This document shows, in pieces, positions 3,535 through 4,017 of a DNA stretch of 12,835 nucleotides (positions are counted from its first letter, which is position 1; every line of letters starts with the position of its first letter). Both the position numbers and the translations under genes were made by a program. The stretch lies in IMG/VR virus record IMGVR_UViG_2579778894_000012. One strand, given 5' to 3'. Origin of the DNA: a virus (lineage: Duplodnaviria > Heunggongvirae > Uroviricota > Caudoviricetes). The notes under the pieces are model-generated. The model worked only from the letters and a program-made list of their open reading frames with translations, was not told the origin of the DNA and ran no database searches.

Positions 3535-3694
3535 AATGGCAGCCTCGGTAGCAAGCTTAAAAAACTCACCACATAAGACGCCAATCATAGAGGTGGTGAG
3601 ACGTACAGAGTTGGCGTTACCGGCGGCTACCCTTACCGGCGCATCTTGCGATGCCCCTGTACGCCCCACCATAATTTGGGCGTGACAAAATAAT

Positions 3695-3729
3695 GCGTAC
3701 AAAAAAACCGCATCTACGCGGTTGTACGC
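3695..3729 (-). terminator. Candidate intrinsic terminator in the rightward-type (pR-like) operon
   Basis: Minus-strand RNA forms AACCGC-guagau-GCGGUU followed by UUUUUGUACGC. Lies in the in-frame region upstream of Rha, so it conflicts with the extended-ORF reading. Confidence 0.3.
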
Positions 3730-4017
3730 GGTAGCCTTCTCCAGGACGCCAATCCCGGCACCCGCTTTATAAGGTGCCTGAACAGTGTAACGTCCCGGAA
3801 TGGCAGAATCAATGTGCTGGTGGTCCTTCACACTCAACAAAATCACGCCTGAATTTCCACAAAGGACTAAAGCACTCATGCGGGTAGTCTTTGCGAAGAT
3901 AGATAACGCGCTGTGTTTCTGGCTCCCAACGAATAACATGGACATAAAGCCCTCTTCCGTCACGAAACCAGCGGTTAAGTTCCTGCACAACTCGCCCCCC
4001 ACAGTCAGGTAAAGTTC

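Follow-up and report, generated by a model that had tools for sequence, protein, structure and literature searches.

The closest described counterparts of the region analysed here are RNA-based immunity modules of the P1/P7 immI, P4 and Gifsy-1 isrK type. The region comprises positions 3535..4002 of a stretch of 12,835 nucleotides (nt) from the Caudoviricetes virus record IMGVR_UViG_2579778894_000012 (the whole stretch is referred to as the window), and it lies directly upstream of a Rha-family gene on the minus strand. A preliminary description of this DNA had offered two explanations for it: a Rha fusion of unusual length, or a regulatory spacer with tR1 or pRE analogues that happens to lack stop codons. 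Our analysis indicates that 3535..4002 is likely to be the control region of an RNA-based immunity module of the above type, combined with a frame that resembles eta of P4.

In P1 and P7, the C4 RNA is processed from a precursor transcript, and repression causes Rho-dependent termination. The curated immI layout runs from promoter P51 through a1, b1, c4, a2, b2 and icd to ant1/ant2, with b2 placed at the ribosome-binding site of icd and the icd ATG about 50 nt after c4. For Gifsy-1, experiments have demonstrated the promoter, read-through of the terminator, translation of orf45 from an AUG within the C4-like RNA, coupling of orf45 to the downstream antirepressor, and a processed RNA of ~80 nt, STnc1160 (PMC4825925). 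The short IsrK RNA binds Hfq and activates downstream translation in trans (PMC4825925). In P4 immunity, the CI RNA is processed from a primary untranslated transcript (as described in PMC4825925). According to the summary of Forti et al. (1999) given in PMC10111431, the P4 eta gene encloses seqA, the CI RNA and an internal promoter that is constitutively active; transcripts started there terminate rapidly via RNA interactions and yield CI, Kil is a truncated in-frame form translated only on read-through, and full-length Eta is translated only when the upstream promoter fires. The same summary, citing Forti et al. (1999), describes eta as coupled to its upstream gene and translation of the long form as preventing termination.

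Relatives of the window locus were collected in two ways, by DNA similarity (phages and Escherichia coli) and by the Rha protein (other genera); their genera include Citrobacter, Serratia, Edwardsiella, Pantoea, Erwinia, Endozoicomonas and Marinomonas. Forty related loci were scanned with Rfam, 42 were aligned, 43 were used for the in-frame ATG, and 37 for stop codons and phase; the duplex comparison covered 32 C4 types and C4 covariation 31 sequences. The features that make up the module in the window, together with the open reading frames (ORFs) at its downstream end, are as follows (protein lengths in amino acids, aa).

3784..3812, minus strand: isrK promoter, -35 TTGATT (3812..3807), 17-nt spacer, -10 TACACT (3789..3784)
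3701..3777, minus strand: IsrK / P4 SeqA-type small RNA (sRNA), Rfam RF01394, full length
3777..3758, minus strand: isrK hairpin 1
3757..3741, minus strand: isrK hairpin 2, with target site a1 (3753..3745) in its loop
3736..3727, minus strand: isrK target site b1
3723..3701, minus strand: isrK intrinsic terminator, stem-loop 3723..3706 followed by a T-run
3589..3676, minus strand: C4 / P4 CI-type antisense RNA, Rfam RF01695, model positions 1-87 of 87
3655..3641, minus strand: C4 hairpin 1
3640..3619, minus strand: C4 hairpin 2, with b' (3632..3625) in its loop
3618..3610, minus strand: C4 a'
3577..3585, minus strand: target site a2, AUUGGCGUC, the same as a1 and complementary to a'
3565..3572, minus strand: anti-stem GUGGUGAG followed by a T-run, conserved in the alignment
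3543..3552, minus strand: target site b2, in which GCUACC (3552..3547) abuts the Rha Shine-Dalgarno (SD) motif GAGG (3546..3543)
3535..3672, minus strand: leader frame equivalent to orf45, from ATG 3672 (C4 position 5), 46 codons without a stop, in frame with Rha
2989..3534, minus strand: Rha-family gene, 181 aa, from ATG 3534; Pfam PF09669 (E 5e-30), TIGR02681

In the Rfam scan, isrK scored 60 bits against a gathering score of 50 and C4 scored 68.4 bits against 45; a match to the a1/b1 target motif, below the Rfam threshold, overlapped the 5' part of isrK. The geometry of the module was fixed in each of the 40 scanned relatives, which range from Escherichia to Marinomonas: isrK, a spacer of ~24 nt, C4, ~54 nt, then the gene ATG. 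Both RNAs showed covariation, with 6 of 10 pairs of isrK hairpin 1 altered on both sides and compensatory double changes in 16 of 27 C4 pairs. The transcript 3777..3525 was predicted to fold at -107.8 kcal/mol (z = -4.3 against shuffles). By analogy with P1, the mature C4-like RNA would extend from about 3670 to 3592. Two signals recorded in the preliminary description were confirmed and explained by these elements: the terminator-like hairpin on the minus strand is the isrK terminator, and the direct repeat TTACCGGCG at 3617 and 3633 (plus strand) represents the two arms of C4 hairpin 2 (GCCGG...CCGGU). The conserved anti-stem GUGGUGAG is able to base-pair with CUCACCAC, the 3' strand of the outer stem of C4, which would provide an alternative fold of presumed function.

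The sigma-70 promoter of isrK was read from the sequence, as its score (8/12) is under the threshold of the promoter scan. A -35 TTG and a TAnAnT -10 at the same spacing are kept in 42 of 42 aligned loci, including Gifsy-1, where the isrK promoter at the matching position has been experimentally defined (PMC4825925).

The target sites link the two RNAs to each other and to the Rha start. In the window, a1 (3753..3745) and a2 (3585..3577) are both AUUGGCGUC, opposite a' AACGCCAAC (3618..3610), while GCUACC is common to b1 (3735..3730) and b2 (3552..3547), opposite b' GGGUAGCC (3632..3625). Across the 32 C4 types, a1 in the loop of isrK hairpin 2, a' in the single-stranded tail of C4 and a2 just after C4 change jointly, and so do b1 after isrK hairpin 2, b' in the loop of C4 hairpin 2 and b2, which ends at the SD; in most relatives the b2 pairing extends into the SD. 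Predicted duplexes were stronger between cognate partners: the C4 core paired with its own leader at a mean of -31.5 kcal/mol compared to -21.8 with non-cognate leaders, and with its own isrK at -32.1 compared to -21.0. The cognate partner ranked best for 17 of 32 types with the leader and for 25 of 32 with isrK. The a and b types reassort independently among loci (L071, for example, has the a type of the window together with the b type of L084), a pattern that suggests a combinatorial code of RNA immunity.

Compared with P1 and P7, the window has an equal geometry up to the position of icd. Both share the C4 fold and the a and b targets duplicated on its two sides, both carry their specificity in a/b blocks that differ among heteroimmune relatives and have a downstream gene assigned to the antirepressor class, and b2 lies at the SD of Rha just as it does at the icd ribosome-binding site. 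The window differs in that no icd gene is coupled to ant1/ant2; Rha itself occupies the icd position, and a profile search returned no Icd-like match in the Rha-family protein encoded there. P1 carries in-frame stops inside c4 and the leader and so has no eta-like frame. No separate terminated sRNA is described for the a1/b1 segment of P1; the corresponding segment of the window matches isrK and has an intrinsic terminator.

Both Rfam models also match P4, in the same order (isrK-like element 8692..8615, C4 8507..8420). The P4 gene ATG is 54 nt after C4, its MAT... start is shared with the window, and the frame is open from upstream of the isrK-like element. As in the lineage of the window, the long ORF of P4 holds an internal constitutive promoter and contains the downstream gene in frame, and both loci translate to the Pfam family Ash. 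The loci differ in cargo (Icd-like Kil in P4, the 181-aa Rha in the window) and in the spacer between isrK and C4 (107 nt in P4, 24 nt in the window). Unlike that of P4, the long ORF of the window overlaps a DUF4222 gene and is cut by a nonsense single-nucleotide polymorphism (SNP). The window element is a lambdoid prophage with a CI/S24 repressor as its primary immunity, and the RNA module would form a second layer, compared to the sole immunity in P4.

Gifsy-1 and the window have in common an isrK with promoter and terminator and a gene start 54 nt after C4. The Gifsy-1 AUG, which falls at about +106/107 and within the 5' strand of the C4-like RNA (STnc1160), has the same position in its transcript as ATG 3672 in the window; in both, the central part of IsrK is complementary to orf45/C4 sequence. 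In Gifsy-1 (L076), orf45 encodes 45 aa in frame 2 and has an AUGA overlap with anrP, whereas the leader of the window is fused in frame to Rha. The Gifsy-1 cargo, AnrP, is an ORF6N antirepressor; no sequence similarity was found between it and the window Rha, and identity of the two was rejected. The Gifsy-1 locus adjoins a late antiterminator gene, while the module of the window is located in an early operon.

The window covers the immunity and early genes of a CDT-I-like lambdoid prophage. The region 3535..4002 occupies the early rightward operon, with a CII/YmfL-like gene on one side and replication genes on the other. The long frame that crosses the module and the genes around it are listed below.

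5020..5694, plus strand: S24 CI-like repressor gene
early region, minus strand: cro/YdaS-like gene
4134..4697, minus strand: CII(CP76)/YmfL-like gene
4134..4137, minus strand: ATGA overlap, in which the TGA stop of the CII/YmfL-like gene overlaps ATG 4137, the eta-like start in relatives
4018..4020, minus strand: private nonsense codon TGA, AGA in every relative in the alignment
3809..3988, minus strand: DUF4222 gene, 59 aa, GTG start, in a frame that differs from that of the long ORF
2989..4002, minus strand: long ORF, 337 aa, its upstream end set by the in-frame TGA 4020..4018
in line after the long Rha ORF and a small ORF, minus strand: DnaD/O-like replication gene

The Rha frame is indeed open upstream to 4002, as had been noted, and it is this 337-aa ORF that invites interpretation as a genuine long Rha fusion with a functional 156-residue N-terminal "Ash" domain. 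Pfam PF10554 (Phage_ASH) matches aa 72-166 with 54.4 bits (cut-off 26, E 2e-14), PGAP and phage annotators call Rha or antirepressor proteins of 337-382 aa or an "ash family protein", and the frame is kept in many loci. However, the Ash match spans exactly isrK, C4 and the leader (window 3505..3789), and the conservation of this stretch is accounted for by helices and intermolecular pairings. A codon-periodicity check, proposed in the preliminary description, gave flat or inverted patterns in the extension: the frame-0 column entropy at the three codon positions was 0.66/0.63/0.52 in isrK, 0.57/0.56/0.65 in C4 and 0.83/0.79/0.87 in the leader, so that among the aligned relatives no third-position excess was found in isrK, the spacer, C4 or the leader, including the leader frame from ATG 3672. 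Coding periodicity begins only at the Rha ATG (0.78/0.58/1.08 at the Rha 5' end). This internal Met at 3534 with its own SD (GAGG, 3546..3543) had been proposed earlier as the Rha start, and both ATG and SD are kept in all relatives; from it, the Rha domain takes the expected N-terminal position, aa 13-110 of the 181-aa short form (aa 177-262 of the 337-aa ORF). Predicted ORF collections do not separate translated frames from merely annotated ones. In P4, the coding sequence historically annotated as "cI gene product (AA 1-137)" matches Ash over the Rfam C4 stretch, which is the CI RNA locus of P4 (L087 8330..8521). One and the same "domain" also precedes cargos that are not related to each other (Rha, a 77-aa protein, an Icd-like protein). 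Of the first 65 residues of the extension, about 60 coincide with the DUF4222 gene in the other frame, and P1, Gifsy-1 and other loci do not keep the frame intact. The preliminary description had named frame-breaking changes in homologues as evidence for a noncoding stretch and a conserved domain match as evidence for a long protein. Both were encountered, the former in P1, Gifsy-1 and Marinomonas, the latter as the Ash match, which does not constitute protein-domain evidence. Ash as a real N-terminal domain was consequently rejected, given the lack of codon periodicity, the RNA covariation and the P4 "cI" case; the Pfam family Ash and the PGAP name "ash family protein" are the conceptual translation of isrK, C4/CI RNA and leader. 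A long fusion protein is very improbable and already largely refuted.

The DUF4222 ORF is better supported as coding. It matches Pfam PF13973 (E 9.5e-14), is annotated by PGAP in relatives, and in its own frame gives column entropies of 0.14/0.09/0.41 at the three codon positions; since substitutions concentrate at the third positions of its frame, 3809..3988 contains a real gene. Its stop codon is overlapped by the isrK -35. All signals listed earlier are present, while this ORF and the upstream TGA 4020..4018 had been overlooked. The ATG 3945 preceded by GAGGG (3954..3950), suggested earlier as a start for the extension, is present, but was rejected in this role, as it lies inside DUF4222 in the other frame and is not conserved (GCG in L078/L079).

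Equally, the regulatory content of the interval is not of the lambda type. Such a reading would take the hairpin as a tR1-like terminator and the plus-strand TTGCGA-18-CATAAT (3646..3675) as a pRE-like promoter directed toward the repressor gene, and it draws on a location flanked by the CII-like gene and replication genes, on the hairpin and on the 9/12 promoter-like match, all of which are present. But the hairpin belongs to a full-length isrK match, promoter-like elements are at chance level (2 compared to 0.9 ± 0.9 in shuffles), and the proposed element is simply the complement of the loop of C4 hairpin 1 plus AUUAUG, its -35 TTGCGA being the complement of a non-conserved tetraloop. No CII box TTGCN6TTGC was found in 3535..4002; in the window as a whole there were 20 matches with 19.4 expected. 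Both the plus-strand promoter and a pRE-type CII box were therefore rejected, and the probability of lambda-type signals here is negligible. The former proposal of a regulatory spacer thus holds in its regulatory part, with isrK, C4, target sites, promoter and DUF4222 in place of tR1 and pRE elements.

The question of whether the open frame is selected was addressed by counting stops in all 37 loci against a per-segment column-shuffle null and by comparing open and broken loci in the RNA-anchored register. Frame-0 stops per locus numbered 0.11 in isrK (null 0.41), 0.03 in the spacer (0.15), 0.19 in C4 (0.41) and 0.11 in the leader (0.58). Frame 0 is thus depleted ~3.5-fold, whereas frames 1 and 2 match the null; only 0 to 3 of 200 shuffles were as low as observed in frame 0. 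In the RNA-anchored register, the 12 frame-broken loci carry 1.8 stops per locus at 12 distinct columns compared to 0.07 in open loci, and because of this RNA constraints alone do not forbid frame-0 stops. An ATG at C4 position 5, in frame with the gene ATG and without an intervening stop, is found in ~30 of 43 loci; the distance from C4 to the gene ATG is 51, 54 or 57 nt, in steps of 3. A single phase is shared at nine anchors in 25 of 37 loci, and five more (L007, L011, L012b, L010, L012) have locally compensated frameshifts. At the upstream end, ATGA starts occur 51-57 nt before isrK +1 (-51/-54/-57) in several upstream contexts that are not related to one another, often preceded at 7-9 nt by a GGAGG-like motif; in the lineage of the window, the ATGA start coincides with the stop of the CII/YmfL-like gene. 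As far as the sequence goes, the eta-like start could be coupled to the upstream gene. The comparative data support an open, in-phase frame selected for ribosome transit, with the peptide apparently not under selection. The absence of stops, attributed to chance in one of the two earlier explanations, is probably no accident, in view of the frame-0 depletion, the compensated frameshifts and the ATGA starts.

The window itself no longer has the complete frame. An ORF of 382 aa from the ATGA start is present in phage cdtI (orf44) and in L001, L072, L073, L086 and L003, and is interrupted in the window by TGA 4020..4018, which cuts it after 39 codons and leaves a 337-aa remnant, an in-frame leader of 46 codons that starts at ATG 3672, and the short Rha of 181 aa. 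Each of the 989 E. coli records that match differs from the window by 1 base over 3990..4050. The TGA may be a real inactivating mutation or a sequencing error.

Several points weigh against an immunity module with a selected eta-like frame. For the window, the promoter, the ends and processing of the RNAs, and any dependence on Hfq or Rho are carried over by homology, and an antirepressor role of Rha would be drawn solely from module position and annotation. The C4 score of the window is the lowest of the set, and its own b'/b2 pairing is short, ~6-7 bp. In contexts that contain DUF4222, the eta-like frame would overlap a real gene, and the nonsense SNP shows that the long ORF is dispensable in at least one prophage copy. 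The frame is not kept in P1 (the archetype), Gifsy-1, a Yersinia phage and Marinomonas, so the system can do without translation across the module. Column shuffles take no account of relatedness, and most of the open loci come from Enterobacterales, which leaves room for common ancestry.

Some of these points also favour a different account, in which the frame is open by descent and RNA constraint only, the leader is untranslated apart perhaps from a Gifsy-like leader peptide from ATG 3672, only the short Rha is made, and the 337- and 382-aa ORFs are annotation artefacts. The flat codon periodicity, the in-frame stops of P1 within c4 and the leader, the broken frames of Gifsy-1, Marinomonas and four further loci (L057, L014, L020, L083), and the tolerated nonsense codon of the window all agree with it, and phylogenetic relatedness of the open loci means that the shuffle tests overstate significance. 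Open frame-0 stretches of 300-400 codons further upstream (Edwardsiella, Izhakiella and others) also fit this account: as fusion proteins they were rejected, being low-complexity junk typical of shadow ORFs. What such an account does not predict is that frame 0 alone is depleted, that stops do appear in this register once the frame is broken, that five loci compensate their frameshifts, that the C4-to-ATG distance varies by 3, and that ATGA coupling, together with SD-like motifs, is seen repeatedly in upstream contexts that have no relation to each other. In addition, P4 eta is reported as translated and functional in PMC10111431, which cites Forti et al. (1999). We regard an open frame by descent alone as rather unlikely, and prefer the RNA immunity module with a frame kept open for ribosomes.

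Under this preferred reading, the module could work as follows. In the lysogen, the promoter 3812..3784 would fire constitutively, and most transcripts would end at the isrK terminator and yield IsrK. Read-through transcripts would be processed to the C4-like RNA, which would pair with a2/b2 and block the ribosome-binding site of Rha, and the untranslated transcript would then terminate prematurely. IsrK, bearing the same a/b sites, may lift this block as a decoy or remodeller and so turn on Rha, putatively an antirepressor-type protein of the Bro network. The eta-like frame would be translated only on transcripts from the upstream promoter, by ribosomes coupled from the CII/YmfL-like gene, and, in phase with Rha, it would cross the internal promoter and the genes of IsrK and C4. 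The transit of ribosomes, rather than the peptide, would be what matters: it would stop RNA folding and termination and make early lytic transcription insensitive to the RNA immunity.

A further and more tentative idea, which we consider possible but doubtful, is that in lambdoid prophages the isrK-C4 module does more than switch an antirepressor and provides the early rightward operon with a second, RNA-based checkpoint, at which eta-like translation is needed and which follows a combinatorial a/b code. The terminator and the presumed C4-dependent termination lie between the CII-like and the replication genes. Under this idea, pR transcripts would reach Rha and the replication genes only with ribosomes translating the eta-like frame, co-resident prophages could cross-induce or cross-repress each other via the a/b code, and the private nonsense SNP of the window would be a crippling, domesticating mutation. 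Should an eta-like override operate in lambdoid phages, it would bear on the commitment to induction of prophages encoding Shiga toxin or cytolethal distending toxin (CDT) and on cross-talk between co-resident prophages.

The module is of a known kind, and the addition made here is modest: it concerns the Ash and long-Rha annotations, the selection on the frame, and the recognition that P1 c4, P4 CI/eta/kil and Gifsy-1 IsrK, usually treated in separate literatures, share one module and one geometry. In practical terms, an annotation trap is resolved for ~1,200 of 5,426 complete E. coli genomes and for many phage records, in which 340-382-aa "Rha/antirepressor/peptidase" or "ash family protein" calls swallow two RNA genes and DUF4222. 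Related sequence is present in 1,223 of these 5,426 genomes. The record of the CDT-I converting phage (AB285204) is 100% identical to window 3500..3830, which is annotated there as "putative antirepressor" orf44.

In four loci, tandem copies of the module were observed, each before its own cargo gene and with differing a/b types. Both copies are complete isrK-C4 pairs in three of these loci, and the upstream copy of L057 is a C4 match only.

L084: 591..779 and 1247..1435
L085: 1237..1425 and 2085..2273
L012: 299..493 and 1258..1446
L057: 1004..1082 and 1264..1447

At L017 1340..1424 (Marinomonas), Rfam reports sRNA-Xcc1 (RF02221, 67 bits) where neighbouring Marinomonas loci carry C4; the two Rfam families may be related. 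In L006, L007, L008, L009 and L011, the frame of the gene is open for 230-330 codons upstream of isrK with a low-complexity translation; these are probably shadow ORFs of opposite-strand genes and represent a trap for gene callers. Downstream of the module, a 74-aa ORF (2768..2992, minus strand), ATGA-coupled to the Rha stop, gives a collinear but weak alignment to the DUF4222 protein (pairwise E 0.03), and DUF4222-like genes may flank the module on both sides. Between the stop of the CII/YmfL-like gene and the start of DUF4222 (~4040..4125, minus strand) there are hairpins, for example AACGG-CAAATA-ACCGTT and a longer CAACAG...CTGTTG stem. Their sequence differs in Citrobacter (L003) and ST64B (L074) while the pairing is retained, and they may represent a further RNA element, such as a terminator or a nut-like site.

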